Below are positions 12,767 through 63,616 of a stretch of 64,000 nucleotides of DNA, piece by piece; position 1 is the first letter of the stretch; the number at the start of each line of letters is the position of its first letter. This stretch comes from Verrucomicrobiales bacterium (GTDB lineage Bacteria; Verrucomicrobiota; Verrucomicrobiia; Verrucomicrobiales; DEV007). The position numbers and the translations under genes are program-made. The DNA lies in assembly GCA_041749135.1 (NCBI GenBank), contig JBGTBW010000146.1:9573-73572 (forward strand). Direction: 5' to 3'. The notes beneath the pieces are model-generated. The model was not told the origin of the DNA. It searched no databases and worked only from the letters and a program-made list of their open reading frames with translations.

Positions 12767-12940
12767 GACCGCGGATCGTGACACAACTCCCGCCGCCGAA
12801 CATCGGAGGGGATGCGTAGAAAGGGCTACGGGTGGTTGCCTACGTAGCGCTACGGAGGGGACGCTCGCCGCCTCGATGAAGTGCGCCACCGACAGGGTCC
12901 AGGTGGGGCGCCAGCGTTTCAGCGGACCCGGATCCGACCG

Positions 12941-16686: not shown

Positions 16687-17150
16687 CGTGAGATCCTTGT
16701 AAGAAAACCCGCTCGAAAGCAGCCCGCAAATACAACCTCATCTCCCCAGAATCACCCCCAACAGCGGGAGAGCATCCTGAATGTCCTTTACCTTAAACTG
16801 CAGGAATTTCCATGAGCCAGGTGGAGTGAGACCGCGGACGCGGTCTCTTTAGTGCGACGCTTCGCGGCGCTTTCCCACGCGCGCCCGGCCCGTGAGGATG
16901 AAAACGATGAAATCCTCCAATTCACCGAAAAGAGCGCCCAAGGAGCGCGAAACGCGTCGATTTTTCCTTGACTGAAGCGCCGGTTCCGGCGGGATTTACC
17001 GGAGTGAGCCAGGATGCCCAGTCTGCAGCTCTACCTCCCCCCAACCGCCTCCTCTGACCGAGCGGGACCGGCAACTTTGAAAATCGAATTCCTGCTCTTC
17101 GACGATGGTTTTCTGAGCGTGCAGCCATGTGTGGAAGGAGAAACGGCGTA

Positions 17151-45813: not shown

Positions 45814-45934
45814 TCAAGCGGCAATCCGTCCGCCTGGCAAAAGGGATTCAAGCCATCGATTCTCTTCCCCTTCGGCATAATCGGAAATCTGTGGCAGAAT
45901 TATCCCCTCCGCCTGCATCCACCCCATTCTCCCC

Positions 45935-47005
45935 ATGAATTCTCGCACGCTCCTCACTGCTGCAGGGCTCCTCTGCTTCGCCCCACTTTCCCTTCCCGCT
46001 GACGATTCCGTCTTTTCCGGCCCGCAACCCGGCGAAAAAACCACTCCCTTCCAAGTCCTCGACCTGACCGGAGACGACCCGGGCCTGACCCGAGACCCCG
46101 TGGCGGAATCCTCCGGAGCCGCGGCCGTCCTCGTCTTTGTGCACGGCATCGAGCGCTCTCTGGTTCCGCTATTGCGCGTCGTGGACGAGTACGGGGCGCT
46201 GCGCAGGGACCGCCTTGCAACGGAGATGATCTTTCTCTCGCCCGACCGCCTCGAAGGCGAGCGCCGTGTCCGTGCTGCAGCCGGTTCCTTGAAACTGCAA
46301 TCCCGCGTCGGCCTGTCCCTGGATGGAGCGGAAGGTCCGGGTAACTACGGTCTCAACAAGGATTGCCTCATCACTATCATCGCGGCCAAGGACAACACGG
46401 TGACGGCGAATTTCGCACTCGTGCAGCCCGGGATCGCCGATGCACTGGCTGTCATCGAGGCCCTGGCCAAGCTCTCCGGGGACGATGCGCCGCCCTCCAT
46501 CGAAGAGCTGAACGGCCTCCATTCTGCCCGCACCGGAGCCGGCGGAAGCCGGGCCCCAGCAGAGATGCGCCCCAGAGACGCCCGCAGCAGTGCATCGCCT
46601 CCCTCCGTGGATTGGGATGCCTTCGATCTCGATTCCGACGCGGGCCTCCGCGACGCCGTCCGGGCTCTCATCGGCGAAATGAAAGAGCTTCAGAATGAAC
46701 TTGCCGCCAGGCGCAGCGATACACCCTCGACCGGTCAGGCGCGGGAAGATTTTCCGGGCGCAGTCCCCACCGACGCCGCCCTGCAGGGATTGCTTCGCCG
46801 TTTCATTCAGCCGGCCAACGGCGACGAGGCCGTTGACGCCCTCCTCCAGGAGGTGCGTGAACACATTGGCGACGACCCCGGATTGCGCCGCCAGGCCATC
46901 GACGGCTGGACCCGCATCCTCCATTTCGGCGATCGCTATGGCACAGCCTATGCCCGGCAAACCGGCCGCGCTTTCCTGGCGGAACTCCAAGAAGAGGCTC
47001 CGTGA
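45935..47005 (+). CDS. Hypothetical secreted protein (356 aa), first gene of the PSD1/DUF1501 operon
   Basis: Signal peptide MNSRTLLTAAGLLCFAPLSLPA. Its stop overlaps the GTG start of the next gene (GTGA at 47002-47005). Confidence 0.55.
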   Translation: MNSRTLLTAAGLLCFAPLSLPADDSVFSGPQPGEKTTPFQVLDLTGDDPGLTRDPVAESSGAAAVLVFVHGIERSLVPLLRVVDEYGALRRDRLATEMIFLSPDRLEGERRVRAAAGSLKLQSRVGLSLDGAEGPGNYGLNKDCLITIIAAKDNTVTANFALVQPGIADALAVIEALAKLSGDDAPPSIEELNGLHSARTGAGGSRAPAEMRPRDARSSASPPSVDWDAFDLDSDAGLRDAVRALIGEMKELQNELAARRSDTPSTGQAREDFPGAVPTDAALQGLLRRFIQPANGDEAVDALLQEVREHIGDDPGLRRQAIDGWTRILHFGDRYGTAYARQTGRAFLAELQEEAP

Positions 47006-49116
47006 TCACCCGGATCATCCTCACCGTTGCGACGGCGTGGGCCTCCGCTCTCGCCGGCGCGGCCGATCCGCCGCCGTTCCGCACCGCCATCTTGCCCGTG
47101 CTCACCAAGGCCGGATGCAACGCCGGAGCGTGTCACGGAGCCGCCACCGGTCAGGGCGGATTCCAACTCAGTTTGCTGGGTTACGATCCGGTGGAAGACT
47201 ACGATCGCATCACCCGGGAATTCGGCGGCCGGCGCATCGATCCCGACCGCCCGGACGACAGCCTGCTCCTCCGCAAGCCTTCCTACCAGCTCGATCACGA
47301 AGGCGGTCGAAAACTCCCGCGCGATTCCAGCGGTTACGCTCTCCTGCTCCGCTGGATCGCCAGCGACGCGCCCTACGGACCCGACGACCTTCATGTGACC
47401 GCGATCGAGGTCGATCCCCAGGACAGTTTGATCGAAAACACGGGCGACTCCGTGCAGCTCCGCGTCATCGCCTCTCTTTCCAATGGCTCCCGGGAAGTTG
47501 TCACTCCGCTCGCTCTCTACACCTCCAACGACGACGCCGTCGCCGACGTCTCGGGCTCAGGAGCCGTCGCCGCTGTCGGCCGAGGCCTAACCAGCATCAT
47601 GGTCCGCTACTCCGGCCAAGTCGCCGCCGCACGCATTGCCGTCCCCTTGGGCGGCCCGGACCAAACAGTTGTCCTAACACCGGCGGCTAATTTCATCGAT
47701 GAGCACATAGGCTCGGAATTGCAGCGTCTCCGCGTTCCGCCGTCCCCGGCGAGCGGCGATGCGGAATTCCTCCGGCGTGTTCATCTGGACCTCGCCGGAC
47801 TCCCGCCCACCAGCGAAGCGGCGCGGACTTTCCTGGCCGAACCGCCGTCCCCAGACAAGCGTCTGCGCGTTATCGAAACGCTGCTGGCCGGCGAGGCTTT
47901 CGTAGATTTCTGGACCATGAAACTCGCCGATCTGCTCCTGCTCAAGGGCAGCGGCAAGGAGGCCGCCGTCTATCACCGGTGGCTGTGGGATCAGGTGGCC
48001 ATGAATGCCCCCCTCGATCGGGTCGCCAGCGCCCTGCTCACTTCCACCGGCGACTTGACCAGCGCCGGCCCGGCCAATTTCCTAACGCTCGCCAGCGATC
48101 CGCGCGATCTCGCCGAGCACGTCAGCCGGATCTTCCTCGGCGCCCAGTTGGCCTGTGCCCGGTGCCATTCCCACCCCTCGGATCGCTGGACCCAGGAGGA
48201 TTACCATCGTTTCGCCGCTTATTTTGCCCGCATCACCCAGGAAGGAGGATCCATCTCCATCTCCCCCCGGGGCGAAGTCGATCATCCCAAGACCGGAAAA
48301 CCCCTGGCCCCCAAACCTCTCGGCTCTCCCGCCTCCCCAAACCCCGATGATGAATCCCGCCTTGCCGAACTGTCCCAATGGCTCACCTCGCCCGACAATC
48401 CCTTCTTCGCTCGCGCCTTCGTCAATCGGGTCTGGAAACACTTGCTCGGCCGCGGGCTGGTCGAGCCGCCCGACGACCTCCGCCCCACCAATCCGCCGAC
48501 TCACCCCGCCCTGCTCGACGCCCTCGCCGCAGATTACGTCGCACAGGGCTTCGATCTCCGGCATCTCGTCCGCACCATCGTTTCCTCGCATACCTATCAG
48601 CGCACTTCCCAAACCTTGGAGGACAACCGGGCCGATACGCGCTTGTATTCGCATGCCGGTCTGAAAGCGCTTCCCGCTCCGGTCTTCGCCGACGCGGTGG
48701 CGCAAGTCACGGGCGTTCCTGATGTCTTCGAGGGCTACCCCCCCGGAGCGCGGGCGGTCCAGCTCGTGAGTCCAGCCGTGCCCTCGCCCGCCCTCGATGT
48801 CCTTGGCCGGTGCCTGCGAACCGGCCCCTGTGATGGACCAGCCCAGTTGGGGGGCGGTCTCGCCAAAGCGCTGCACCTCATCAACGGCCCTACCATCAAC
48901 GCCAAACTCCGCGACGGCGCGGCCCGCGCACTGCAAGGCCGCTCCAGCCGCCAAGCCGTCGAGGAACTCTACCTCCGCGCTTTCACCCGGCCCCCCGAAC
49001 CCGCCGAACTTGCCGAATGGAGCGCGTGGCTCGACCAGTCCCCCGATCGGAACGCCGCCCTCGAAGACTTGCTCTGGACCCTGCTCAACTCCCGCGAGTT
49101 CGCTTTCAACCGCTGA
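47002..49116 (+). CDS. PSD1 (planctomycete cytochrome-c-like) / Big_2 / DUF1549 / DUF1553 protein
   Basis: N-terminal CNAGACHGAATGQGGFQLSL (PSD1 CxxCH-like). DUF1553-like ...ARCHSHPSDRWTQEDYHRFAAYF. Paired with a DUF1501 gene, as is typical. Confidence 0.8.
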   Translation: MITRIILTVATAWASALAGAADPPPFRTAILPVLTKAGCNAGACHGAATGQGGFQLSLLGYDPVEDYDRITREFGGRRIDPDRPDDSLLLRKPSYQLDHEGGRKLPRDSSGYALLLRWIASDAPYGPDDLHVTAIEVDPQDSLIENTGDSVQLRVIASLSNGSREVVTPLALYTSNDDAVADVSGSGAVAAVGRGLTSIMVRYSGQVAAARIAVPLGGPDQTVVLTPAANFIDEHIGSELQRLRVPPSPASGDAEFLRRVHLDLAGLPPTSEAARTFLAEPPSPDKRLRVIETLLAGEAFVDFWTMKLADLLLLKGSGKEAAVYHRWLWDQVAMNAPLDRVASALLTSTGDLTSAGPANFLTLASDPRDLAEHVSRIFLGAQLACARCHSHPSDRWTQEDYHRFAAYFARITQEGGSISISPRGEVDHPKTGKPLAPKPLGSPASPNPDDESRLAELSQWLTSPDNPFFARAFVNRVWKHLLGRGLVEPPDDLRPTNPPTHPALLDALAADYVAQGFDLRHLVRTIVSSHTYQRTSQTLEDNRADTRLYSHAGLKALPAPVFADAVAQVTGVPDVFEGYPPGARAVQLVSPAVPSPALDVLGRCLRTGPCDGPAQLGGGLAKALHLINGPTINAKLRDGAARALQGRSSRQAVEELYLRAFTRPPEPAELAEWSAWLDQSPDRNAALEDLLWTLLNSREFAFNR

Positions 49117-49119
49117 CCC

Positions 49120-50457
49120 ATGCCAACTTCCCCCACTTTTACCAAGCAGCGCTGTGATGGCGTGGTCCGCCGCGACTTCCTCCACCTCGGCCTGCTCACC
49201 ACCTTCGGACTCAGCCTAACGGATTTATTCCGCTTGCAGGCCCGCGCGGCGGACGCCTCCCAGCAGTCCGCCAAAGCGAAGTCCTGCATCCTGATCTGGC
49301 TCGACGGCGGTCCCAGTCACCTCGACATGTTCGACCTCAAGCCCGGCGCGCCCTCCGAGCTGCGCAGCCAGTTCCAACCCATCCCCACCAGCGTCGCCGG
49401 CTTGCACATCAGCGAACACCTCCCGCGCACCGCCACAGTCATGCGCCACGTAGCCCTCATTCGCTCCCTCACCCATGAATTGGGCAACCACGACACCGGA
49501 ACCCGCTTCCTGCTCACGGGCCACCGGCCCGGCCCCGCCTTGGATTATCCCAGCCTCGGAAGTCTCGTAGCGCATTCCCAGGGTTTCCGGGAAGCCATGC
49601 CTCCCTATATCGCCGTCCCCAACGATGGTGTAGGTGGGAATTCCAACGCCGCCCGTTCGGGCTATCTGCCCGGGGCGTTCTCCGCATTCAACGTGGGCAA
49701 CGATCCTTCCAATGTCGATGGACTTCAGCCGCCCGATGGCCTCAGTTTCGCCCGAAACGAAAACCGGCGCGAAATGCTCCGCCGCATGGACGCCTTCAAC
49801 CAGCACATCGAAGAAGGCCCGGCCACTCGCGACCGCGACGCCTTTTACCAGCAAGCCTACCGTCTGCTCGCCTCACCCGAAGCCAAGTCTGCTTTCGATC
49901 TCTCCCGGGAGGCCCCGAAGACCCGGGAACGCTACGGCCCTGCTCGCGTCGGCAGTGGCTGCCTCCTGGCCCGCCGCTTGATCGAGGGCGGGGCTCGCTT
50001 CGTAACCGTCGTGGACACGGGTTGGGACATGCACCAGCAAATCTTCAAGGAACTGCCCGACTCGCGCTTTCCCGGCAGCGGCAAACTGCCCGCGCTCGAT
50101 CGCGCCTATTCCGCTCTCCTAACCGACCTCCACGAACGGGGCCTCCTGGAGTCCACCCTCGTCGTGCTCATGGGTGAGTTCGGACGCACCCCCAAGCTGA
50201 ATGCCGCCGGCGGACGCGATCACTGGCCCCGGGCTGGCTCCGTATGTCTCGCCGGCGGCGGCATCCAGGGAGGACAAGTGATCGGAGCCACCAACCGCTT
50301 CGGAGAGTTCCCCGTCGAACGTCCCGTCGCCCCTCCCGACCTGGCCTGGACCATCCTTCAGCTCCTCGGCGTGGATCCCAGTCAGGAGCTAACCACTCCC
50401 ACTGGACGCCCTGTCAAGATTTTGAACGAAGGCGCTCCCATCGCCGAACTTCTGTGA
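49120..50457 (+). CDS. DUF1501-family (sulfatase-like) protein with a Tat signal
   Basis: RRDFLHLGLLTTFGL (twin-arginine). ...ILIWLDGGPSHLDMFDLKP..., the canonical DUF1501 N-terminus. Confidence 0.8.
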   Translation: MPTSPTFTKQRCDGVVRRDFLHLGLLTTFGLSLTDLFRLQARAADASQQSAKAKSCILIWLDGGPSHLDMFDLKPGAPSELRSQFQPIPTSVAGLHISEHLPRTATVMRHVALIRSLTHELGNHDTGTRFLLTGHRPGPALDYPSLGSLVAHSQGFREAMPPYIAVPNDGVGGNSNAARSGYLPGAFSAFNVGNDPSNVDGLQPPDGLSFARNENRREMLRRMDAFNQHIEEGPATRDRDAFYQQAYRLLASPEAKSAFDLSREAPKTRERYGPARVGSGCLLARRLIEGGARFVTVVDTGWDMHQQIFKELPDSRFPGSGKLPALDRAYSALLTDLHERGLLESTLVVLMGEFGRTPKLNAAGGRDHWPRAGSVCLAGGGIQGGQVIGATNRFGEFPVERPVAPPDLAWTILQLLGVDPSQELTTPTGRPVKILNEGAPIAELL

Positions 50458-50473
50458 GGCCATCCAAAAACGC

Positions 50474-51481
50474 GTGAAGCTCAACTTGTTTCTCCGCTGG
50501 ATGGCGCTCATGGCCGCTGGCCTGATCCTGGTCCCCTGCCTCTCCGCTGCTCCCGTTGTTGCCCTGGCATTTTCACCAGATGGCTCGACTCTCATTTCCA
50601 ACGGCGACCGGAGCCTCGACCTCCGTTCTCCCAAAGACGCCGCCCTCCAGCATCACATCGCCTGTGACCTGCCCAAGATCACTTCCCTGGCCTTCGCGCC
50701 CCATGGAAAACTGCTTGCCGCGGGCGGCGGCGATCCCGGCGTCAACGGCGAAGTCCTCCTCTACGCCTGGCCCGAAGGGAAGCTCTTGCAGCGCTTCGGC
50801 GACCACAAGGACCTCGTCACTGGGCTGGATTTCGACTCCGGCGGCACGCGCCTTGGCGTTGCATCGAGCGACGGCCAAGCCTCCCTCTGGAGTTGCGACG
50901 CCGAGACCGGACCCAGGCCTCTCCTCACCTTGACCGCTCACGCCGGTCCCCTGCTTGCCATCGCCTTCAGCTCCTCGGGCGAGATTCTCGTCACCGCCGG
51001 AGCCGATCGCTCCCTCAAGGTCTGGGACGCGCAGGACGGCGCTCTCCGGCGCTCCTTCGATCACCACACCCAAGCCATCCACACCCTGGCCTTCCAGCCG
51101 GCCCCCGATGCCGATGACCCCGGACCACTCGTCTGCGCCACCGCAGGCGACGATCGCACCGTGCGCCTCTGGCAACCCGAAACCGGACGAATGCTCCGCA
51201 TCGTGCGTCGCCACGAAGGCCCGGTTTTCGCGCTGGCCTGGGCGGCCGGCGGAGCCTCCCTTTTCTCCGCCGGACAAGAAGGCGTCATCCGCCGCATCGA
51301 CGGAGCCAGCGACCTCATTCAGGCCCAGTGGCAAGCCCACGACGACTGGATCTACGCCCTTGCCCTCAGCCCTGACGGAACCACTCTTGCCTCCGGCGAC
51401 TGGTCCGGTCGCGTCCGGTTGCACGACATCCGCGCAACCCCACCAGAAACTCCGTCTCCTCAACAGGCCTGCCGCCCTTGA
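50474..51481 (+). CDS. Secreted WD40-repeat (beta-propeller) protein
   Basis: Signal peptide, then ~7 WD-like repeats (LAFSPDGSTLIS, LAFAPHGKLLAAGG, ...SLKVWD, ...TVRLWQ). Confidence 0.7.
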   Translation: MKLNLFLRWMALMAAGLILVPCLSAAPVVALAFSPDGSTLISNGDRSLDLRSPKDAALQHHIACDLPKITSLAFAPHGKLLAAGGGDPGVNGEVLLYAWPEGKLLQRFGDHKDLVTGLDFDSGGTRLGVASSDGQASLWSCDAETGPRPLLTLTAHAGPLLAIAFSSSGEILVTAGADRSLKVWDAQDGALRRSFDHHTQAIHTLAFQPAPDADDPGPLVCATAGDDRTVRLWQPETGRMLRIVRRHEGPVFALAWAAGGASLFSAGQEGVIRRIDGASDLIQAQWQAHDDWIYALALSPDGTTLASGDWSGRVRLHDIRATPPETPSPQQACRP

Positions 51482-51564
51482 CCCGCAGCCCGCGTTTTCT
51501 CAGACGTTTAGCCACGCAGAAGCTCTTTGGGAAGCCCTCAGAGCAAAACGGACGCCGCTGCGCG

Positions 51565-53187
51565 TCAATCGAGAAGCCGCAAGCGGTAGAACCGCTGCTG
51601 AACCACCGGCGAATCATGCGCGGTCGCCATGGCGCCCGCCCCGTTCACCTCGGGACCGAGCGGCAACCAGTCCCCCTCTGCCAAAACATCCAAGTATTCC
51701 GGTTGGTAGCGCTGCCCGGCGCTGGCGTCCCATTGCAGCGTCACCGTGTCGCCGGCGACGCTCAATTCAAGACTGAGAAGCGGCACAAACACGTTTGCAA
51801 AGATGTAATCCGCCACCTGCCGGCCTTGGGCGATTCCCTCCGTCTTATCGAAGGACCAATGGATGCCGAGGTAGATCCGGCTCTGGCCGTTTTCCTCCTC
51901 CGCCTGAGAAAGTGTTGAAAAGCTGCGCGGAATGAGCGGCCGCGTGTTGCCCTCACGGTCCAGCGTGATGCCGTTGTACTCGTCTGACACAAACGTGAAT
52001 GCGATGTCGTCGGTCCTGTAGAAGTTGCGCAGGGTCTGAAAGAGGGCGCCGCCGAATCCGGCGTGGCCTGAAGGGTAGGCGGGGAAAGGAGGCGTGAAGT
52101 TTGGGCTGGAGAGATTGCTGGCCGGCGCGCCCAACGGAGAAAACACCGGGTCGCCCTCTGTAGCCTCGTTGCCGTCGCCGGCCCCGGTTGGTCCGAAGCC
52201 CGGATCGGATTCCCGGATGCCGGTGACCGGTCTCCAGTAATCGTAGAAGTACTTGGATTCCCAAATCGCGATGCCGGAATCGGCCATCGCCACATTCACC
52301 AGAGCCAGAAGCCGCGCCAATCCGATGCCTTCCGTTCCCATTTGTGCGGCGATGTGGACGGCGATCTGATTGTAAAGCCGCGGCGGAGCGCACAGGCTGG
52401 GAGTTCCGTCGTAGGCCCAGTAGTTGCCGATTGCGGTTTGCTCCGGCAATCGCTCCGTGGGTGTCCCAAAACCGTCGCCGCCCAGGCGTTTTGCCTCGTC
52501 ATAGGCGGCCGCGTATTCGGCGCTGGTTAAGGCAGGCGGCGGCGGGACCCGAAACTGGGAAGAGGATTCCAGGACGAATGGAATGCATTCACCCCAATAG
52601 GCGCCCAGGGCGATCGGGATCAGACTAATGGGATCCTGACGCCAGCGGCCCGGTTGATCGCTCACCACATGCTCGATGGCCATCAGAGGTTCGGACTTAG
52701 CGGAACCGTCGTTGGATTTGAGGGTGAGAATCGCCGCGGCGGCCTGCTGCCCCAACTCAATCCCATTCGCCTTGGCCGGCTCCTCTGAGATCGTGCCCAG
52801 GTCCTCCTCAAGCCACACGCCAAAGTTCGCTGCTTGAGAGGGGAAGAGCACGATCAACGTGTCGTGGGCCGCCTGGCTGATCGCGGCTTCCAGAGACAGC
52901 AGCCCCGGAGCCGCTTGAATCCCAGTGTAACTCCGGTAGCCGCCTTTCGCCGCGACCATCGTGTCGAACATCGCGATATGGACGATGGCCATGGCCCGGC
53001 TCGACCGGCCGGGTCCAATCTGTTCGCCGAAGACGCGCTCCTCGTCGGGCGCAACAGGCGTGTGATCGAGGCCGCTGGCGTTGATGGCAATCTCATTCCA
53101 GCGGAGCAGCGTGTCAGTGCTGGCGAAAACCGCGCCGGGGAAAATCCCGAGAACCAGACTGACAATCAATATCGAGCAGGTTTTCAT
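51565..53187 (-). CDS. PAP2-superfamily / vanadium-dependent haloperoxidase-like secreted protein with the C-terminal FYR-type tail
   Basis: Signal peptide MKTCSILIVSLVLGIFPGAVFA. PAP2 signature blocks K(YFYDYW)RP, PSGHAGFGG, SRIYLGIHWSFD (KxxxxxxRP / PSGH / SRxxxxxHxxxD). Ends ...VTLQWDASAGQRYQPEYLDVLAEGDWLPLG...QQRFYRLRLLD. Confidence 0.75.
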   Translation of the reverse strand: MKTCSILIVSLVLGIFPGAVFASTDTLLRWNEIAINASGLDHTPVAPDEERVFGEQIGPGRSSRAMAIVHIAMFDTMVAAKGGYRSYTGIQAAPGLLSLEAAISQAAHDTLIVLFPSQAANFGVWLEEDLGTISEEPAKANGIELGQQAAAAILTLKSNDGSAKSEPLMAIEHVVSDQPGRWRQDPISLIPIALGAYWGECIPFVLESSSQFRVPPPPALTSAEYAAAYDEAKRLGGDGFGTPTERLPEQTAIGNYWAYDGTPSLCAPPRLYNQIAVHIAAQMGTEGIGLARLLALVNVAMADSGIAIWESKYFYDYWRPVTGIRESDPGFGPTGAGDGNEATEGDPVFSPLGAPASNLSSPNFTPPFPAYPSGHAGFGGALFQTLRNFYRTDDIAFTFVSDEYNGITLDREGNTRPLIPRSFSTLSQAEEENGQSRIYLGIHWSFDKTEGIAQGRQVADYIFANVFVPLLSLELSVAGDTVTLQWDASAGQRYQPEYLDVLAEGDWLPLGPEVNGAGAMATAHDSPVVQQRFYRLRLLD

Positions 53188-53599
53188 GCGAGTTTCATTT
53201 CTGAATGAGGCCTTGAAAGCGCCATCGAACTTGCCTCCGTCGCAACATGACTCTCACGCTCTCTGCACAGGTTCGGTTTTCGCCCCAGCCAGCCCAGCGG
53301 CTCTCCTCGGGACTGCGACGCGAATCGCGCGTATCGTTCTTCCCGGGACCGCGCGCGACGTATTCATGAACTCCCAGCTTTGTCGCAGCATTGCGGCGTC
53401 AATTAAAGAAGATTTCTTCTAAACAGCCATCGGTAGCTTGCCGAACAGACGCTGGAATGGACGAATCTCAGGGTGCACGCCGAGCGGCTTCTCGAGTCGG
53501 CCAGAAAGCATGTGGCCGTGAATCCGGCGCGGGTGGCGATGAGGACGGCGGGATACGTGAACCGCCGTTCGCGATGAAATGCCGGTTTCCCCAATCCAG

Positions 53600-54259
53600 T
53601 CACAGATCCTCTGAATCCCGCTTTGCCAGCACCCGGACCAATTCCAGTCCCTCGCGCCCGGGATAAGCGGAGGACGGGACCCACTCGGCGGACTTGATGA
53701 ATGCGGGTTGAAAATGGACGTCGAGTTCAGCAGCGCTTGCGCCGTGGGGAGGGCCGTCGCCGGGCCGGTGTTCGTCGTCGTAAGGGTCGAGGTAAAAAAT
53801 CGCCCAAAGCTGGCCGCCGGGGCTGAGCAGCCGGGCAACGGCCGCGACGTATGCGTCGCGGCGCGCCGGGTCGATGGCGCAGAAACATGTATGTTCCACG
53901 ACCCAGTCGAACGGTCCGGCGCCATCCCCGGGCCAAGTGAAGAGGTTTCCTTCGAGGAAGCGGAGGTTGGGGAGCCGGTAGCGAGAAGCCGCGCTGGCCA
54001 CGGCCAACGGAGCTATGTCGAGCCCGACAACCTCGGCGTCGGGACACCGGTCCGCAATGAGTGCGGCGTCGTGCCCGGAGCCCACGCCGGGGACGAGCAC
54101 CCTGCCCTCGAACCGGTTGACCGCCAGCCAGTCACGCAGGGGCGGAGCGGCCTCTCCCTTGTCCCAAGGGACATTGCCCTCGGCATAGCGTTCGTTCCAA
54201 TCAACGTGAGCTGAAATCGGATCCACTGCCTGGAAGGATACCGTATTCCTAGACTGCAC
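53600..54259 (-). CDS. SAM-dependent methyltransferase (thiopurine S-methyltransferase-like)
   Basis: Motif I VLVPGVGSGHDAALIA. TPMT-like W..RY...NVPWD N-terminus. Start uncertain: GTG at 54259 proposed; the open frame extends to 54460. Confidence 0.6.
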   Translation of the reverse strand: MQSRNTVSFQAVDPISAHVDWNERYAEGNVPWDKGEAAPPLRDWLAVNRFEGRVLVPGVGSGHDAALIADRCPDAEVVGLDIAPLAVASAASRYRLPNLRFLEGNLFTWPGDGAGPFDWVVEHTCFCAIDPARRDAYVAAVARLLSPGGQLWAIFYLDPYDDEHRPGDGPPHGASAAELDVHFQPAFIKSAEWVPSSAYPGREGLELVRVLAKRDSEDL

Positions 54260-54568
54260 TTCATACTTTTCCGTCGCGAGGGGCCGGCGAGCCTCGTGCG
54301 GATCCAGAGCCTCACGCGGCCGCTCATCGCCTCCGCCCACCACGGCGCTCCGCGGCTTGAGAGAGAGCGGCGATACTCGCCCGGAGTCCAAGCGCCTCCG
54401 GCTTGGCTCGGCGTTGCCTCTCAGGGCAGGCGAAAGCCGCCGCCGTGGGACTGCGGCCATCCTTCGCCGCTCTTGAGCCGGATCAAGAGAAACTCACCGG
54501 TGCAGCGGTTCTGGCGCGGCATTGATATGCGCCTGCCGCATGGCCGGATCATTCAGCCTGTTCCGGGA

Positions 54569-54850
54569 TTAACCGCGGCGCGATTCCGAAAAGGCTTCCC
54601 GCCGGTCATCCCGGGGACGGGCCTCGTTGACTGTGAGATTGCGGCCGTTCAAAGCTTGACCGTTGAGCCCGTCGATGGCGGCTTGTCCTTCCTGATTGGC
54701 GGTCATGGTCACAAAGCCAAAGCCGCGTGAGCGTTGGGTCATGCGATCGGTCACGACGACGACTTCCGCAACGCTTCCAAAGCGCTCGAAGGCGTCCCGA
54801 ATGTCTGTTTCGGTGGTCTCAAAGGAGAGATTTCCGACGAAGAGTTTCAT
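54569..54850 (-). CDS. Small RRM-type RNA-binding protein (93 aa)
   Basis: RNP-2 KLFVGNLSF and RNP-1 RGFGFVTM. Confidence 0.85.
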   Translation of the reverse strand: MKLFVGNLSFETTETDIRDAFERFGSVAEVVVVTDRMTQRSRGFGFVTMTANQEGQAAIDGLNGQALNGRNLTVNEARPRDDRREAFSESRRG

Positions 54851-55029
54851 AATAAGGTGGTATGGCGATCAAAAGACTGGCCTGCTAGCGAAAGCGATCC
54901 CGAAAACCGGGTTTCAAACCACCACCGAGACAAAACTCACCTGACGATTTACGACGCGCCGAACAACGAACAATCAGTTCGATCTTAGATATCTTCGGCC
55001 ATTTCGCGAACTTCGCAAGGTCTATTTTC

Positions 55030-55760
55030 TCCCGCCGCCCCGCGGGAATCCCAGGCCAGAATGTAGCAGAAACTGCAAAGCTTCCGATGATTGGGCCACG
55101 GGTCGAGGAGAACGAGGCCTCCCCACGGGGATCCCGGAGGGCGAAAATGTAGCGGCACCTGCAAAGCTTCCGATGATTGGGCCACGGTTCGATGGGACTG
55201 GGCCTCCCCACGGGGATCCCGGAGGGCGAAAATGTAGCGGAAGCTGCAAAGCTTCCGATGATTGGGCCACGGGTCGATGAGAACTGGGCCTCCCCGCGGG
55301 ATCCCTGGCTGCGAGAATGTAGCGGAAGCTGCAAAGCTTCCGATGATTGGGCCACGGGTCGATGAGAACTGGGCCTCCCCACGGGAATCCCGGAGGGCGA
55401 AAATGTAGCGGAAGCTGCAAAGCTTCCGATGATTAGGTCACTGGTCGATGAGAACTGGCCCTCCCCACGGGGATCCCGGAGGGCGAAAATGTAGCGGAAG
55501 CTGCAAAGCTTCCGAGGATTGGGCCACGGTTCGATGAGAACGGGGCCGCGCCGCGGGAATCCCAGGCTGCCAGAATGTAGCGGAAGCTGCAAAGCTTCCG
55601 ATGATTGGGCCACGGGTCGATGAGAACGGGGCCTCCCCGCGGGATCCCTGAGGGCGAAATGTAGCGGAAGCTGCAAAGCTTCCGATGATTGGGCCACGGT
55701 TCGATGAGAACTGGGCCTCCCCGCGGGAATCCCAGGCTGCGAAAATGTAGTCGAGTAGAC
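55030..55760. repeat. Tandem array of about eight direct repeats of an 84-86-nt unit plus a partial ninth, each containing a 7-bp hairpin with a GCAA (GNRA) tetraloop
   Basis: Unit aatgtagcggaagctgcaaagcttccgatgattgggccacgggtcgatgagaactgggcctccccacggggatcccggagggcgaa recurs with the gcaaag anchor at 55075, 55161, 55246, 55331, 55417, 55503, 55589 and 55673. Contains ggaagct-gcaa-agcttcc and a second imperfect GC-rich hairpin (gcctcccc...ggagggc). Confidence 0.85.
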
Positions 55761-55981
55761 CGGGGCCTCCCAGGCCGCATCCTCGAATATCTCCTCCAGG
55801 ACAAGCTTCCGCCGTCCTCCCGCCGAACGCCGCCGTCCCTCCCTCAGCATCGCGCGATATCTCCCAGGTGGCGCTCCTTGGGACTCACCGCTGGAATTCT
55901 GAAACTCCGTTGCTCTTCCTTTTTGGTTGCAATCCCCGGTGGTTCGGCCTAGATCACCGCTCCCGTCGCTCTACGGGCTAA

Positions 55982-56067
55982 GGGTAGGTACCGAAGCGGT
56001 CAAACGGGGCAGACTGTAAATCTGCTGGCTTACGCCTTCAGTGGTTCGAATCCACTCCTGCCCACCA
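55982..56067 (+). tRNA. tRNA-Tyr: tRNA-Tyr (anticodon GUA), long variable arm, CCA encoded
   Basis: Manual cloverleaf: acceptor gggtagg/cctgccc, 3-bp D stem ccg/cgg, anticodon stem gcaga/tctgc with loop ctGTAaa, variable arm hairpin ggc-ttac-gcc, T arm agtgg-ttcgaat-ccact, discriminator A + CCA. 86 nt. Confidence 0.9.
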
Positions 56068-56095
56068 GCCTCATCCTAAGGCCCTGGCGACCCGT

Positions 56096-56171
56096 TGCAG
56101 GAGTGGGTTCGAACCACGGGGTGGTTTCGACTGCCGGTCTCGCGATGCGCAGCGAGCGGGACTTCTCCTGC
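56096..56171 (-). other. tRNA-like remnant on the opposite strand. Its 3' ~19 nt match the T-arm/acceptor 3' end of the adjacent tRNA-Tyr in inverted orientation.
   Basis: The minus strand reads ...gtgggttcgaacccactcctgc, 18/19 identical to tRNA-Tyr ggttcgaatccactcctgc. A ~76-nt segment has a pairing acceptor (gcaggag/ctcctgc) but no canonical D or anticodon arms. Confidence 0.25.
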
Positions 56172-57306
56172 TGCGCGAAGCGCACTCCGCAGAGCCCCGC
56201 CGCAGGCGGGGATAATCCAGCCCTGCCCACTTCCTTCAAAATGAAGGGCTTACACCGATGCTCACTCTATCAAGTGGCACCAGAAGCAAGAATCCTGCGG
56301 ACAATTTGCGGACAGTTTTGCGGTCAACCCTAGGACCACTTTCCTTCAACCGCACTCCCAGCGACACTGCGCCGATGGCCCCACTTGCCAACCGTTTCGC
56401 CATGCGAGTCCCGGAGATTCAGGTTGGGTAGGGTCAGGGCCTTCACGTGCCGATCGACGGTGAGCTGAGGACGACGATCCTGGCCTTCTTGGCCGTGTCA
56501 CCGGGAAGGCGCCTGGCACCTTCCGCCGGCGGGTGCTTCATGGGGGCGTCTGCCGGATCCTGGACGAGGGTGCCATGCAGAGACTGGCGATGGAGGATGT
56601 GGAGGAGGCTGGAATGTAATGAGAGGGGTGAGCCACCCTGAGACAATGGGCTTGCCATCAATCGAATTGCGTGATAGGCGGCGTTCATTTGAAAGGTATG
56701 ACCCCGTTGACGAACATCTCTACCTACTGTCCTGATGGAGGCACGCCCGTGCAGGCGGATGTTGTGGCAGATCTCACCAACCAAGGCCCGGGCGGCCCAT
56801 TCGCTTTTCGACCGCTTGGAGGACATCCAGAGCCAGGGACTCCCTTCAGCTTCTTCTCCAACGTGGAAATCGAGGCACCTCTGACCGGGACATTGCAGCA
56901 TATGGGGCAGAGCCATCGCGTCGAGATAGGAGAATGCGCTCCCTTTCAAGGACGATTCAGGGCTTCCGGCGAGATCATTCAATGAAATGAGTTCTGCGGA
57001 GGTCTGAGCATGCGGCCCATTCTGCCCTTCCGCCGCTCCCCGCGACACTGCGCCCGTGGTCACTCACTCCGACCGTTTCGCCCCGCGGAATCCGGAGCCG
57101 CAGCTTGGACGCGATCAGGTCTTGCTCGTTCTCGTCGACGGTGAACTCATGACGGTGATCTTCGCCTTGTCCGCGGGCCGCGACGCGACGGTCGGAGCTT
57201 TCTCGCGCGCTGTGCGACATGACAGTGTGCGCCGGATCTCGGAGAAATCCACTATGCGCAGGCTTGAGCCGACGTACATGGAGGCGGCGGGAGGGCGCCG
57301 ATAGCG

Positions 57307-57825
57307 ATGAGATGGCATCTTGCACAAGCAGCGTGGAGCGATGTTCCCAGTTGGCTGAGTACTCTCGGAACATGGATCGCTGCGATTGGGACTTGGATGG
57401 CTGCCGCGGGTGCTATCGCCGCGGCGATCGTTTATTACTTTCTTCTCCATGGAGAATTAAAGAAACGTCATGAAGAAGCTGAGGACAGCAGAAAGCTCGC
57501 GGCGAAGCGAACGTCCGCTTGGATGGAAGGCGATCGGTTAGTAGCACAAAACAGAGGGGAAGAGCCAATCTACAACGTGATAGTCTTTGTGGGAGAAATA
57601 GGCGACGACTTTGATGCTTCGATTGACAATCTTATCCGGTACCGGTTCTCATCGATCGGGCCCGACGACAGACGCGAACTACCGCTTAGAAAATCTATAG
57701 AACGCGGCACGATTCCCCGGGACCCAGACGTAGCGATCGAGTTTACAGACTGTTCGGGCCAGCATTGGCGTCGGGAGTCGAGCGGGGGACTCAAAGAAAT
57801 GCAGGTGCGGAGGCCCTGCGGTTGA
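57307..57825 (+). CDS. Small membrane-anchored hypothetical protein (N-terminal TM + ~120-aa soluble domain), in the low-GC island
   Basis: TM segment WLSTLGTWIAAIGTWMAAAGAIAAAIVYYFLL. AT-richer codon usage than the core genome. Confidence 0.4.
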   Translation: MRWHLAQAAWSDVPSWLSTLGTWIAAIGTWMAAAGAIAAAIVYYFLLHGELKKRHEEAEDSRKLAAKRTSAWMEGDRLVAQNRGEEPIYNVIVFVGEIGDDFDASIDNLIRYRFSSIGPDDRRELPLRKSIERGTIPRDPDVAIEFTDCSGQHWRRESSGGLKEMQVRRPCG

Positions 57826-57885
57826 CCCCTATGAGGTGGCTTCTCTAACCCCACTCTACGGAGAATTAAGATGCTTTAGTTACCA

Positions 57886-58365
57886 ATGTTGTTAGCCGTA
57901 ACTCCTTTTCTTTCTAGAGTCGGGGAGATCCTTGGCGCCCTTGTTTTCATTGTTGCACTATCCGCAACGGTATACGGGCTGTCGAAGTACATTGACTCGA
58001 GAATTAAGTCACTCTTTCTCCAGGACCGGGAGCTTTTGCGCAAAATCGCGCAGGCGGCTCGGCCGATTGCAATCTTCGATCAGAAGGGAACGGTTTTATA
58101 TGACGGTGGTGCTTCCGAATTCATAGAGTCGCTTTCAGTTAAACTAAACGAAGAACCAGGCAGTTTTGCTGAGGGCTTTCCTAAAGAGATTGTTATTAAG
58201 TCAAAACGATTTCTGCATAGTGCTCCACTCATAGTATCTATTGACCCTGATGATGTGGAGATCACGTCGCGCCGATCCGCCATGTCCGATTGGATTTACA
58301 GGTTGGAGTACAGTGGATATAGCACTCGAGAGGTAACAAGATTCCGAATCGAGATTCTTCGGTAA
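57886..58365 (+). CDS. Small membrane-anchored hypothetical protein (N-terminal TM + ~120-aa soluble domain), in the low-GC island
   Basis: TM segment ILGALVFIVALSATVYGL. Lies 60 nt downstream of the previous gene with the same architecture. Confidence 0.4.
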   Translation: MLLAVTPFLSRVGEILGALVFIVALSATVYGLSKYIDSRIKSLFLQDRELLRKIAQAARPIAIFDQKGTVLYDGGASEFIESLSVKLNEEPGSFAEGFPKEIVIKSKRFLHSAPLIVSIDPDDVEITSRRSAMSDWIYRLEYSGYSTREVTRFRIEILR

Positions 58366-58947
58366 CTAGCTGTTCGACTCTCTCAGGCTCCCTTCGAACC
58401 GTCGCCGAGCTGGACGCCCTGAAGCGTCTGCAAACAGAGACGGCCACAGAGTTCGAGCCCTGCTCCCCGACATCCTCGACTGCGCCTTCAAGGGCGGGCT
58501 TTGAACCCTCGCCTCGCCATGACCAACCCGATTCCCGGTTTCTGCGGGCTGGGTCTCGGCAAAAACCTTGGGGTTGGTGTGGAAGAGTGGCACAACATTG
58601 TGGCTGCATCTGGTAGGCTGAAGCGACCGATAAGAACCTGTCACCATGATCGAACATTGCAAGCTGCTTTGGGCTCTCAATGATCAAAAGCCAGGATTCC
58701 GAGGGGCATCGGCCGACGAGACTAACGAGATTGGATTCACGCCCGAAACGTCATGCATCCAGGTCGAACTCGAGCCCGAATCGCGGGCAGAACTTAATGC
58801 CTTGATCTTCGTTGAGATCGTAGAGCTTCGGATCCAATATGACCCGAAAGCCAATGCATGAGCCCCAGGATTGGGAAAAGAGGAAGGTATCGCTGTCGCC
58901 AAATTCGTTTACGCGGGCAATCGAACAGAGACGCGCCGAAAGACAGT

Positions 58948-59292
58948 CTATGACGAGTTGAATCGCAGCTTCCTGATCTCGAAGATATCAATGAGCCGTG
59001 AAGGCTCGATGTCCGTACTGGATCTTGAGACGAGTTCCTCAACGAACCCGTTCGCAATAAGGGCTTCAGTTGTACCACGATCTAGGTCATACAGTCGCTC
59101 CAGGATTCCTGTCTCAACGTTGAGTCGGCGCACGAGCCGCTGTGTGAACTGCTTAAGGTTGGACGGGCTCGACCATTCTAACCGAGATCTAGCGACTCGC
59201 CAGGTATCGTATAACGGACTTATCGCCGCAAGATCAATTTGTCTGTCTCGGTCGGAGATCTGCTCGATAGGGGTCCATCTATAGTCTGTCAT
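58948..59292 (-). CDS. Short ORF resembling the N-terminal region of Fic/DUF4172-type proteins, lacking the catalytic HPFx(D/E)GNGR core. Probable fragment.
   Basis: MTDYRWTPIEQISDRDRQIDLAAISPLYDTW...LDRGTTEALIANGFVEELVSRSSTDIEPS resembles the Fic N-terminal ...SSaIEG region. The ORF ends ~15 aa later and no HPF motif follows on this strand. Confidence 0.3.
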   Translation of the reverse strand: MTDYRWTPIEQISDRDRQIDLAAISPLYDTWRVARSRLEWSSPSNLKQFTQRLVRRLNVETGILERLYDLDRGTTEALIANGFVEELVSRSSTDIEPSRLIDIFEIRKLRFNSS

Positions 59293-60255
59293 CGATTGAC
59301 CTCGATCTAAGGAATTGAATTCTCCTAACCTTTCATCACAACTGCTGAACAGCTTAGGCTTGGCTCCGTGTCGAAGAACGCGTGGCGGCCGGCGTGTATG
59401 ACGGGCAAATGTCACCGGAGGGAGACTCGTCGTTGAGCTGCGGAGATTGAACCATGGGGTAGTTATGATGAGGGGAGCCGAGAAGGCAAACGTTCCGTTG
59501 GCCGGAAAGCAGTCACGCGAACAGGCCGAGCCTGCGGGGATCGGATGATCAGGAAAGCCTGAGGAGGCTGGAAGGAGTCTCCTGAATCCGGGTTGGCAGC
59601 TGCCGTTAAGTTGGGCGTGGAGGTTTCGTGAAGGATTGTGGCGATCCTTGGACCCGGAGCGTGCGCATCGGCGCTTCTTTTGCGGTTTCGTTCTTTCCTT
59701 GAGTTCCCATCCTCGGGCGGCTTGGCGCATGGAGAGTACGATGGGGTTGAACTCGGGTCGGGCCCGCCCGCGCACACGGAAACCGCGCTTGAGCAACAGG
59801 ACGCGCCCCCGATTCACAGGCCGGATCCTTAGCTAATTCACTCTCGGATTCTGCTGAAGAACGCTTATTGAGCGCTCGGGAGCGGGCGCATGCGGCGGAG
59901 CCTCGTCGAGCCGTCTGCTCCTGCTCCGGAAAGGCGCTAATCACCCTGAAATTTATCTTGCTCCGCCGCAAGAAAGCTGTTGAGGTAAGCGGAAATGAGC
60001 TGTGATGGCCAGTCCGCATCCCTTCCCTCTCCTAAACCGCAGGCGGTAAGGCCAGGCTTTTGGAAGGGAATTCCTGGCCCCTTAAAGAGGTTCAAGTAGT
60101 GATCGAGGTCGCTTACGCTAAAAGAGCGTGCTCAAGGTTCGCAATCACCACGGATACTCGACCGAGCCTGCTACTTCGCGCCATGGCAAGATGGTTTTCT
60201 CTAGGCACGCTCTCTCGACAGCGTCGGCACAAAAAAAAACTCACCGACTAAGACT

Positions 60256-62193
60256 ATGAGTTCCAATCGGGCTTCATCAAGAGATGCCGAATCTGCTGAC
60301 CTATTCGATCAAACGGTGAACCCACTTCTACCCGGCGGTATTCTTGTTTCGATGTTCAGGGACCCTAAAAGCCTAGATACGCTCCACTATGAAATCGATT
60401 CACTAGCCGCCTTTAACACCAACAAAAACAATACTCTCGTCCGCCACTTCCAAAGCCACGGCTACTTGGAAACGCGGCTAGCGACGACCCTCATATCCGC
60501 TTTAACGGACTTCGAAGGTACGCTTCAAGGTTCCGAGCCAAGTCTTTCACTTCGATCTCAGATGTTCGGCTACGATTCCGGTGCGGCACACACAATTTTC
60601 CGCAGTCTTCTCGCCATAAACACATTTGTTCATGTCTTGCAGATAATTACTCCGCCGCCGAAAACCTATCTCAGAGCGGAGTCCCTTGATATTGATGTTT
60701 TGGAGCTTATCAAAGACAGCGCTTTGGACTTTGCGGCTGGAATGTGGTGTAAACTTATTCGGCCCAATCAGGGAGTGGCACGCTGTTGGGGGACGCGGCA
60801 GCTTTGGCGAGCGGCCTTTTCGGAAGACCCACAAGATTGCCTCAGCGCGATTGAAGACGGCGTGGAGATTGCTGAACGGGATGGCCTTTACGCTTTACAA
60901 GAACTGTTAGTCAGTAGTGATGAGTTTGCGGAAGGATTACGCGAATCCTACGAAATAAACGATCGCTTACTGAGCCAGGGGATAGACGAACAGTTTCGCC
61001 GGATCGGGCTGGGGTGCAAATCTTTGGGTCTCCGGCCCGTTTGTTTCTGGTATGTTCGCCACCTTTTAGATCAAAGTATGTGGGCATACGCGCAGATCGA
61101 CGGCAATACTTCCCACGCAGACAATCGCTTTTGCCAAACCCTTTCCGAGCGAACACGGCGTATAGCAGAGGAGTATGCTCAAGAGTGCGAACAGGAACAG
61201 CAGGCTGGAACGCTTCAAGAAGAGGATTTTGACACTGTTCTTGCGGAGTTGGATGAGCTAATCGGCCTTGAGTCTGTTAAAGTAAGGCTGCGGGAGTTGG
61301 CCAACTTCGCGAGAGTTCAACAGATGCGGGTATCACAGGGTCTCCCCAGCGTCAAAACGAACCTTCATACGGTGTATTCCGGAAACCCAGGAACCGGAAA
61401 GACCACGGTCGCCCGCTTTATGGGTAGGATCTATAAGTCATTGGGCATTCTCCGAAAAGGCCATGTTATTGAGTGCGACCGATCAAAACTCGTCGCAGAA
61501 TACATCGGGCAGACCGCAACGAAGACGAGTGAGGTTATTGACTCAGCGCTTGATGGCATATTGTTCGTTGATGAGGCTTATACTTTAGCCGGAAGGCATG
61601 AGTGGGACTTCGGGCGGGAAGCTATTGATACGCTTCTCAAGCGGATGGAAGACGATCGCAATCGATTGATTGTAATTGTTGCCGGTTATGTCGGCCAAAT
61701 GCAGACGTTCATTTTCTCAAATCCAGGATTGCAGTCGCGTTTTACTAATTATGTGGATTTCCCGGATTACACCCCTCAGGAGATGTGTAGGATATTCACT
61801 TTTTTGGCGCGGCAAGCCGGTCTGGAGTGTGCGGCAGAACTGAAAGCAAAGCTACTCCTCCATTTCAGTCTTGCATATCGAGATCGTGCAAAACACTTCG
61901 GAAATGGGAGGGAAGTAAGAAACGTTTTCGAAGCCACTATCAGTCGCCAAGCTAATCGGTTGGCTGGCGTAGGCGATTTCACCGCTGACGCGCTCACTCT
62001 ATTAATCGCGACCGATCTCGCTTCGTCTTATGAGGAGGAGTTTGAGGCAGCGAGAAAGGAGTTGTCGTTCATATGCAGGTGCCCGGCTTGTCAACGTTCC
62101 TACGCATGGCATCCTGCTTCCGACCTCAAGCTAGCACAGTGCGACTGCGGAAAATTGTTTGACGTAGAGTTTGGCGAAGTCGCACTGGAGTAA
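60256..62193 (+). CDS. 645-aa protein: unknown ~330-aa N-terminal domain + CbbX/SpoVK-type AAA+ ATPase + C-terminal Cys4 zinc-ribbon
   Basis: Lower-GC gene preceded by an A9 run. Walker A GNPGTGKTTVARFMG, Walker B GILFVDEAYTL, sensor-1 IVIVAGY, arginine finger region GLQSRF (CbbX/SpoVK hallmark LxxLxxFxxxQ...GNPGTGKT). C-terminal CRCPACQ...CDCGKLF. Confidence 0.8.
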   Translation: MSSNRASSRDAESADLFDQTVNPLLPGGILVSMFRDPKSLDTLHYEIDSLAAFNTNKNNTLVRHFQSHGYLETRLATTLISALTDFEGTLQGSEPSLSLRSQMFGYDSGAAHTIFRSLLAINTFVHVLQIITPPPKTYLRAESLDIDVLELIKDSALDFAAGMWCKLIRPNQGVARCWGTRQLWRAAFSEDPQDCLSAIEDGVEIAERDGLYALQELLVSSDEFAEGLRESYEINDRLLSQGIDEQFRRIGLGCKSLGLRPVCFWYVRHLLDQSMWAYAQIDGNTSHADNRFCQTLSERTRRIAEEYAQECEQEQQAGTLQEEDFDTVLAELDELIGLESVKVRLRELANFARVQQMRVSQGLPSVKTNLHTVYSGNPGTGKTTVARFMGRIYKSLGILRKGHVIECDRSKLVAEYIGQTATKTSEVIDSALDGILFVDEAYTLAGRHEWDFGREAIDTLLKRMEDDRNRLIVIVAGYVGQMQTFIFSNPGLQSRFTNYVDFPDYTPQEMCRIFTFLARQAGLECAAELKAKLLLHFSLAYRDRAKHFGNGREVRNVFEATISRQANRLAGVGDFTADALTLLIATDLASSYEEEFEAARKELSFICRCPACQRSYAWHPASDLKLAQCDCGKLFDVEFGEVALE

Positions 62194-63616
62194 TTCGACA
62201 TGTCCCCACCCCCTGTCCCCACCAGCCAAGCTACGAAATAGGATCGGCATTGGCCCCAATTCCCGGAAGGTCTGGGCTAAGGAGTGTCGCCGCCGTCCCT
62301 CCGTATCCTTGCAAACCGGCTCCGCTCCGGTCCCGATGCCGTCAGCCGGTTCCACCTCAGCTCAATCACGACGTCATGCTCCTCAGCGCGGCCACCAAGC
62401 CATCGGCTACGTCGATTGGCTGCGACTCGTGAAGATCCTCGACGAGTGCTTCCTCGCAGATACGGAACATCCAGACCATGCACCGATCATGGATCGGGTC
62501 TGCACCGCTGACCTCGTCAGCGCCCACTTCCCGGTCTGTCCCGCGCGCATTCCCAGATGGCCGCTGCGCTGGTGGCGCCGGTTGAACCAAACGCTGTAGC
62601 TGACGTTCAACCACTGAGCGCTCCGGCTGAGGTTCGCCTCCGGGGTCTCCAGGAGGAGATGAACATGGTTGCGGGTTCATGCCGCTGCTCTGCGAGTTCA
62701 CAATGCCTGTGTCTTTGTGTGAAGCGTTTGGTGTTGAACGCAGGGACCGCTTGTTGGATCTGCTCGCCTTCCTCTCTACTCTCAACGATCCGTACAGGGT
62801 TCTTGAGGGCTGTCGATTTCCCGCAGAAGATGCCCAAAGACAAGGGGCATAGGACACGCTAGACTCGCCCACGGGGCCCTTTGAACGAAAAGAAAGTCTC
62901 AGACCGCCATCCGATCCAGATCAACGCTTGGCACGATAGCTACAGCGTCATTGGAGCCTTTCGGCCGGTAGTTCCAAAGACTGTGGAATTCTCCACCGTT
63001 CCAGCGGGATTTGATGCTTCTCGTCATAGTCCTGGCATTTCCTCGTCCATGAGTGCCACCTCGGTCCTCGCTCGAAGCGGAGTGCGATTAACCGGGCTTC
63101 ATCAGAGCACCGCCTTCGAGCCAAATGCCCGAGCCGATTCCAATTCCCCACCGCTCCCTATAGATATCGCGGGAAACGGAAACGGGAAACAGCCCTGAAT
63201 GAGCCCCTTGCCTGGGTGGAAGATAGGGCTCTGCGGGGACGCAACCCGAGCGCTGCCCAGGCCTTGCACACCGAAGGACCCTGCAGGGCCCTTGCCGGGT
63301 GGGGCCGCTCAAGTGGTCTCACCCGGCTCCTCCTGCGGGAGCAAGCCCAATGCGATAAATCCATCATTTACCCTGACCACCGTCCCATCGCTTACCGTGT
63401 CCACGCTCAACCGCGCACATCAACCCGCTATCCGCCAGGCATCCAAAGCTGAATGACAACTCGAATCCTGAATCAGAAACCGGAGGGGCGCTCCCGGTAG
63501 CGGGTGAGTGGCCTCGACGTTAGGCGTTTTCTCACGCCCCGTATGAACGGACAATTTACAATCTTATTACAAATTTCTGACAAACCTGCGCAGCCAGCCG
63601 CCTCACACTTGAAGCC

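Follow-up and report, generated by a model that had tools for sequence, protein, structure and literature searches.

The stretch of DNA analysed here, a 64,000-nucleotide window from a Verrucomicrobiales bacterium (GenBank assembly GCA_041749135.1, contig JBGTBW010000146.1), contains a tandem array of eight full head-to-tail units of 84–86 nt upstream of a tRNA-Tyr gene (positions 55034–55750, no strand assigned; TRF, repeat finder and alignment). The array is probably a young, lineage-specific intergenic minisatellite of the VNTR type, formed at a rearrangement junction through slippage or unequal recombination. Its anatomy is regular, it is unique in the collections searched, it is absent from the nearest relative, its left edge is a breakpoint and its predicted stems do not covary.

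TRF resolves a single array with a period of 86, 8.4 copies, 87% matches and 1% indels, for which an alternative period of 342 is barely better (88% versus 87% matches). A gap-free repeat finder returns start-to-start spacings of 85, 86, 85, 86, 86, 86 and 84; with ATGTAG as the anchor, units 1–8 begin at 55061, 55147, 55232, 55317, 55403, 55489, 55575 and 55659 and measure 86, 85, 85, 86, 86, 86, 84 and 86 nt. They are bordered by a partial unit at the left end (55034–55060) and by a shortened ninth unit at the right end (55745–55750). This is the structure that defines a VNTR or minisatellite, imperfect copies lying head to tail at one locus with spacings of 84–86 nt, and the approximately eight tandem repeats of about 85 nt reported in an initial annotation of this DNA are indeed present at 8.4 copies of 84–86 nt. 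The copies are more diverse than the 90–95% identity given there: pairs of units differ at 4–17 positions per ~86 nt, corresponding to 80–95% identity, with a mean column identity of 93%. A 39-nt unit core is matched eight times at three or fewer mismatches, compared with an expectation of zero from shuffles; 63 of the 92 columns in the eight-unit alignment are invariant and 29 are variable, and a 15-nt block (CTGCAAAGCTTCCGA) is unchanged in all eight units. Each unit also carries the palindromes AAGCTT, GGGATCCC and CCGCGG, and twice contains an internal direct sub-repeat of the form CGATG(A)...TGGG...CCACGGG, which 21 of 2,000 shuffles equal in score.

The variation among copies is ordered. 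The short, GC-rich region that is predicted to form the third hairpin of the unit (55377–55397 on the + strand in unit 4, delimited by alignment) exists as variant A (CCCCACGGGGATCCCGGAGGG) in units 1, 2, 4 and 5 and as variant B (CCCCGCGGGAATCCCAGGCTG) in the left partial unit and in units 3, 6 and 8, with unit 7 a hybrid, such that the order from the left partial unit onwards is B, A, A, B, A, A, B, hybrid, B. A two-variant mosaic of this kind is expected from unequal crossing-over or conversion. Decayed unit fragments extend into the right flank (55751–55897, + strand), at 55751–55771 (81% over 21 nt) and at 55878–55896 (15 of 19 matches; equalled by 3 of 500 shuffles). No such fragments occur in the left flank, where the edge of the array is sharp. 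We propose that the array grew from a palindrome-bearing stretch of ~86 bp, located upstream of tRNA-Tyr, through replication slippage or unequal recombination, and that the same processes would have partly homogenized the array, leaving a two-variant mosaic with more degenerate outer copies. The site itself would be a rearrangement junction, with the tRNA-Tyr gene on one side and, on the other, the upstream edge of the promoter of a divergent gene for an RRM protein. We infer both this origin by slippage or recombination and the selective neutrality of the array.

On its left, the array faces a gene that encodes a 93-residue RRM_1 RNA-binding protein (54569–54850, minus strand; Pfam E=1.7e-20) and is transcribed away from it; a conserved leader and promoter region of this gene (54851–55032, minus strand) was delimited by blastn, alignment and consensus folding, and alignment with a relative places the array ~20 bp upstream of the conserved promoter region. 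On its right lies tRNA-Tyr with anticodon GTA (55982–56067, + strand; ARAGORN, and Rfam tRNA at 56.8 bits). The array was first described as directly upstream of this tRNA gene; it is upstream, but the 231 nt that separate its end from the tRNA mean that the two do not abut.

Comparison with relatives, which were located through TPMT and RRM homologues, places the left edge at a break in synteny. The window carries DUF1501, PSCyt2/PSD1 and WD40 genes, and the homologues of its methyltransferase are named Verrucomicrobiales. The nearest relative, GCA_035513055.1 (RRM protein 87% and methyltransferase 80% identical), retains the methyltransferase–WD40–DUF1501–PSCyt2 block as well as the RRM gene with ~180 nt of its upstream leader and promoter. 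DNA homology across the RRM locus, at 82%, ends at window position 55032, the left edge of the array (blastn and alignment); upstream of its RRM gene the relative has a Pyr_redox gene instead, with neither a tRNA nor a tandem repeat. In a second relative, GCA_054456655.1 (RRM protein 70% identical), no array and no tRNA adjoins the RRM gene. Gene order on the far side of the RRM gene was also compared. In the window, the RRM gene adjoins the gene for the TPMT-like methyltransferase, which a PAP2/VCPO-like gene (51565–53187) separates from the WD40 gene; in the nearest relative, ~9.7 kb containing about a dozen genes separate RRM from methyltransferase, and there is no PAP2 gene there. As gene order across 51565–54850 differs from that of the nearest relative, the neighbourhood of the array has been rearranged on both sides.

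The region beyond the tRNA was surveyed as well. A 21-nt inverted repeat, 95% complementary, pairs the T-arm and acceptor 3′ end of tRNA-Tyr (56041–56061) with 56097–56117, an inverted partial copy of the tRNA that lies 35 nt downstream and could be either an integration remnant at the tRNA or the terminator of the tRNA. GC content falls from ~0.62–0.66 to 0.51–0.57 across 57000–62500, and the ORFs of this segment have no Pfam or PADLOC match except for an AAA+ ATPase of 645 residues (60256–62193) that matches AAA, AAA_lid_6 and phrog_4339 (1.8e-31) and, weakly, IetA and TRIP13. Two small ORFs with hydrophobic N termini (57307–57825 and 57886–58365) were also noted. Taken together, the inverted tRNA copy, the lower GC content and the orphan ORFs indicate that 57000–62500 is probably a horizontally acquired island adjoining tRNA-Tyr, possibly a defence locus. 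Among three suggestions made at the outset for the array, namely a structured non-coding RNA array, a REP-like family and a recombination hot spot beside a tRNA integration site, the last fits best: the left edge is a synteny breakpoint, the units form a two-variant mosaic and a low-GC island follows past the tRNA.

We considered whether copy number, unit order or even the tandem arrangement might be an artefact of short-read metagenome assembly. The array is spanned by a single assembly, the 73,572-bp NCBI contig; the contig of an independent Logan assembly, that of SRR28170462, ends inside unit 1, and a right-hand contig from SRR28170463 begins only at ~56179, just past the inverted tRNA copy. 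The first of these Logan contigs nevertheless matches the window without any difference across the left junction and through unit 1, itself a distinctive copy, and it stops exactly where repeats would stall a unitig assembler; moreover, all eight units differ from one another, with 29 variable columns, unlike a collapsed or looped graph path. An artefact is accordingly very improbable. The left junction is independently confirmed by the identical Logan assembly of the same strain, whereas the number and order of the units depend on a single assembly.

In the sequences searched, the unit is confined to this locus. Beyond the array, neither blastn nor a covariance model derived from the eight aligned units found a copy in the 64-kb window or in the loci of the relatives. 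In IMG/VR, four scans with exact and gapped patterns yielded 0, 0, 0 and 3 matches, the three being attributable to chance; a pattern scan of GTDB, with one genome per species, gave 24 single matches, none extending past the pattern and the source genome not being among them; JGI metagenomes gave 9 matches of only 20–30 nt; and blastn against plasmids and phages gave no match. The pattern scans of these collections demand an exact match at 19–22 specified bases, a requirement that diverged relatives of the unit could escape. A REP-like family, as had been suggested, finds no second member in the window or in any collection scanned, and functional readings of the array in general fail on conservation, none being detected outside this locus in the collections searched.

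The array is also overlain by a minus-strand ORF of 321 codons (54885–55850), which the initial annotation had dismissed as an artefact, and analysis of frames, GC3, Pfam matches and homologues bears this out. From the unit coordinates, it reads successive units in frames 0, 1, 0, 2, 0, 1, 2 and 2; its GC3 is 0.61, compared with 0.73–0.76 in the seven ORFs to its left (44377–54460); it has no Pfam family at threshold; and the translated array, used as bait, retrieved only itself among 5.8e9 protein clusters and 1.84e9 representatives. Units of 84–86 nt with a shifting frame, low GC3 and no homologue do not describe a tandem-repeat protein. The NCBI record of the contig lists this ORF as a predicted protein (P0241, 321 aa), which is a spurious database entry. 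Two other features of the window were recorded in the course of this work. A second tandem repeat (17238–17606; period 132, 2.8 copies, 91% matches) is a coding repeat, as it lies inside an ORF (17127–17714) that ends in a PEP-CTERM motif and its period is a multiple of three, and a very long minus-strand ORF (744–12803; 4,019 codons) has a coding-like GC3 of 0.81.

The hairpins described in the initial annotation are present both in the sequence and in its predicted fold. On the + strand, a single unit folds as three consecutive hairpins. Hairpin 1 is an 8-bp stem closed by a GCAA loop (CGGAAGCT-GCAA-AGCTTCCG in DNA; CGGAAGCU-GCAA-AGCUUCCG in the + strand fold). A perfect copy is seen in the sequence and fold of unit 3 (55238–55257, + strand), with identical copies on the same strand at 55323–55342, 55409–55428, 55495–55514, 55581–55600 and 55665–55684, so that hairpin 1 is perfect in six of the eight units, units 3–8 only. 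Unit 1 has a degenerate version (55067–55086, + strand; CAGAAACT...AGCTTCCG, with two A–C mismatches by alignment and pair counts), and unit 2 has the same kind of defect (55153–55172, + strand; CGGCACCT). The GCAA hairpin described initially is therefore real, but its stem is 8 rather than 7 bp and is not perfect in every unit. Hairpin 2 (55349–55376 on the + strand in unit 4, from the fold and pair counts; GGGCC.CGG.UC-GAUGA-GA.CUGGGCCU) is imperfect, has GAUGA as its apical loop and contains two G–U pairs, which would be A–C on the other strand and make it specific to the + strand; the corresponding position is partly broken in units other than 4.

These features, together with a clear strand bias in folding, are the substance of an alternative in which the array is a structured non-coding RNA read from the + strand, possibly transcribed with tRNA-Tyr. 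A single unit folds at −38.1 kcal/mol on the + strand (z −3.1) versus −30.9 on the minus strand (z −1.6), and the whole array at −346.7 kcal/mol (z −6.9) versus −304.7 (z −2.6), so that the + strand folds better than both the minus strand and shuffles, although the eightfold counting of a single palindrome inflates the array z-scores. The better-folding strand is that of the downstream tRNA, with which the array shares its orientation; only on this strand is the loop of hairpin 1, on its 8-bp stem, a GNRA tetraloop, and only there do the G–U pairs of hairpin 2 form. Both GAUGA motifs of each unit are predicted to be single-stranded, the first in the linker that follows hairpin 1 and the second in the apical loop of hairpin 2. 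Such an RNA might be cut into ~86-nt three-hairpin RNAs or might act whole, as a scaffold or sponge with 16 single-stranded GAUGA motifs, for example for an RRM protein, and the adjoining gene does encode an RRM protein.

The pattern of substitution argues against this alternative. All four changes in hairpin 1 fall in the 5′ arm of units 1 and 2, two in each; all of them break pairs (A–C, C–U and C–C) and none is compensated. Most of the changes between copies in hairpins 2 and 3 likewise break pairs, giving 20 unpaired cells in the stems versus 3 pair-preserving changes. Over 25 pairs in the eight paralogous units, 90.0% of cells are paired versus 89.8% in shuffles; only 1 of the 25 pairs has changed on both sides, and the RNAalifold covariation term is slightly unfavourable at +0.8, in a test of covariation that is weak, all of its sequences being paralogues from the same array. 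The GAUGA motifs, intact in 7 of 8 and 6 of 8 units, are conserved no better than the rest. Rfam 15, whose families include hammerhead, twister, pistol, hatchet, STAXI and C/D-box RNAs, yields only the tRNA above a gathering threshold; relaxing the cut-off to E≤10 brings no family match for the unit, snoZ6 scoring highest at 16.8–19.7 bits against a gathering score of 35. Likewise, none of the collections searched yielded a related unit, nothing similar lies alongside the orthologous RRM genes in the two relatives, and 54500–56500 contains no sigma-70-like promoter that we could find. We therefore regard a structured non-coding RNA, which the initial annotation had raised as one reading, as distinctly unlikely. 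The hairpins appear, as judged from the sequence, to be a property of the amplified unit's own palindromes, with no sign of upkeep by selection.

In its most specific form, this alternative would have a multi-hairpin RNA, made together with or just upstream of tRNA-Tyr as eight three-hairpin RNAs of ~86 nt freed by processing or one of ~700 nt with 16 unpaired GAUGA motifs, serve as a ligand or sponge for the RRM protein encoded divergently 180 bp away. We give this proposal only a slender chance; if it were true, an array of this kind would represent a new class of bacterial protein-titrating RNA. Three further RNA-related identities suggested by parts of the unit were examined and rejected. 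A self-cleaving ribozyme array, prompted by a hammerhead-like CCGAUGA...CGAAA seen by eye, is at odds with consecutive hairpins that make no three-way junction and with the lack of any ribozyme match in Rfam at E≤10. A C/D-box, K-turn or TIGR-like guide array is contradicted by a snoZ6 score far below threshold, by the absence of a CUGA box from the + strand unit and by the absence of variable spacers; no Nop-domain protein was found among the scanned ORFs. A tRNA-derived unit, suggested by the resemblance of GGTTCGATG to a T-loop, is not recognized by ARAGORN, which detects the true tRNA only.

The RRM gene has a conserved feature of its own on the other side of the array edge. Its leader is kept in three Verrucomicrobiota genomes with RRM proteins at 100, 87 and 70% identity to the one encoded in the window, and lies at 54851–55010 (minus strand) in the window, 7842–8000 in locus L037 and 4845–5000 in locus L039. 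The consensus folds at −25.8 kcal/mol by RNAalifold, with 6 of 39 pairs changed on both sides, and has no match in Rfam. From these alignments, the leader is a candidate cis-regulatory, possibly autoregulatory, element of bacterial RRM genes. A second ORF with an RRM_1 domain (41460–42089) has that domain at residues 119–188, so that translation probably starts further downstream; the region upstream of it lacks the leader motif that is conserved at the first RRM gene.

A second alternative places function in the DNA rather than in RNA. The units might be reiterated binding sites that activate or insulate the divergent RRM and tRNA-Tyr promoters, or a centromere-like or iteron-like site of a mobile element. 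Each unit has the 8-bp inverted repeat and two further palindromes (GGGATCCC and CCGCGG), together with an internal direct sub-repeat, which could be a binding site in reiterated form, and the invariant 15-bp block; the array lies close to the conserved RRM promoter region and next to a tRNA gene with a low-GC island beyond it. Set against this, two of the eight units carry mutations in the left arm of the palindrome, the 86-bp period corresponds to a non-integral number of helical turns, and the orthologous RRM promoters of the relatives work without an array. A Pfam scan of 33–36 ORFs (the ORFs at positions 24–521, 744–12803 and 33594–39089 lying outside it) detected no cas, transposase, integrase, Par or Rep gene, and among the scanned ORFs there is neither ParA/ParB, Rep or an integrase nor a plausible cognate regulator. 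A centromere or iteron array is accordingly represented by its inverted repeats and not by par or rep genes, and the unit has no plasmid, phage or IMG/VR match. We consider this alternative unlikely. Any effect that the array does have would nonetheless most likely be exerted at the level of DNA, through the spacing or upstream context of the RRM or tRNA promoter.

The remaining reading that we weighed is a stack of minus-strand terminators or insulators, in which each hairpin followed by CUACAUUUUCG would shield the RRM promoter from transcription arriving from the side of the island. A lenient terminator scan flags a minus-strand hairpin with a T-run in three units. However, the four terminator-like sites found compare with 2.5 ± 1.6 in shuffles, the T-run consists of only 4 T and starts 6 nt past the stem, the minus strand folds worse than the + strand, and the gene immediately to the right is the + strand tRNA, which leaves no obvious incoming minus-strand transcript to be stopped. 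This reading is, in our estimation, highly improbable.

A minisatellite is thus the reading that we retain, and its value is mainly practical. The array breaks short-read assemblies, with two Logan contigs ending at or near it; it gave rise to a spurious 321-aa 'protein' in the public record; and it could help to tell strains apart within this Verrucomicrobiales lineage. It would gain in importance only if the + strand were expressed as a stable RNA or if the adjacent RRM and tRNA-Tyr promoters were modulated by it; beyond the strand-biased folding energy, nothing that we found favours expression or promoter modulation.

Comparison with known systems helps to place the array. CRISPR arrays resemble it in having a palindromic element at regular spacing and, at one of their ends, degenerate copies. 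Their unique spacers have no counterpart here: the entire 86-nt unit repeats at 80–95% identity, the eight-unit alignment (63 of 92 columns invariant) contains no unique segment and there are no cas genes among the scanned ORFs, so that the early judgement that this is not a CRISPR array holds. REP/BIME, MITE-like and STAXI elements are likewise GC-rich imperfect palindromes in intergenic DNA, and STAXI can occur in tandem. These families are dispersed or recurrent, whereas the present unit has no second copy in the 64 kb and no Rfam match, STAXI included. Sponge RNAs of the CsrB/RsmZ type resemble the array in reiterating a short motif, here 16 copies of GAUGA, and centromere repeats of the sopC type in consisting of tandem units that each carry an inverted repeat, those of F-plasmid sopC being 43 bp long. 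With no partner protein, GGA motif consensus, par genes or conservation here, both likenesses are architectural only.

The closest parallels in genomic setting and in type lie elsewhere. At tyrT of E. coli, also a tRNA-Tyr locus, 178-bp repeats lie downstream of the tRNA and each contain the tRNA 3′ end; like the present array, they are a tandem repeat on the scale of 100 bp in physical linkage to a tRNA-Tyr gene. The array described here lies upstream and contains no tRNA-derived sequence, the only tRNA fragment near it being the inverted one at 56097–56117; a literature search for tyrT repeats and bacterial hairpin minisatellites returned nothing specific. The mycobacterial MIRU form a dispersed family of units of ~40–100 bp, present at many loci per genome and polymorphic in copy number between strains. 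Against their many loci and known strain polymorphism, a single locus is seen here, known from a single assembly. What the array has in common with MIRU and other VNTR loci is imperfect, lineage-specific units of tens of base pairs that lie head to tail in intergenic DNA with no dedicated machinery nearby, and by its structure it is a further example of a familiar type of element, the VNTR.
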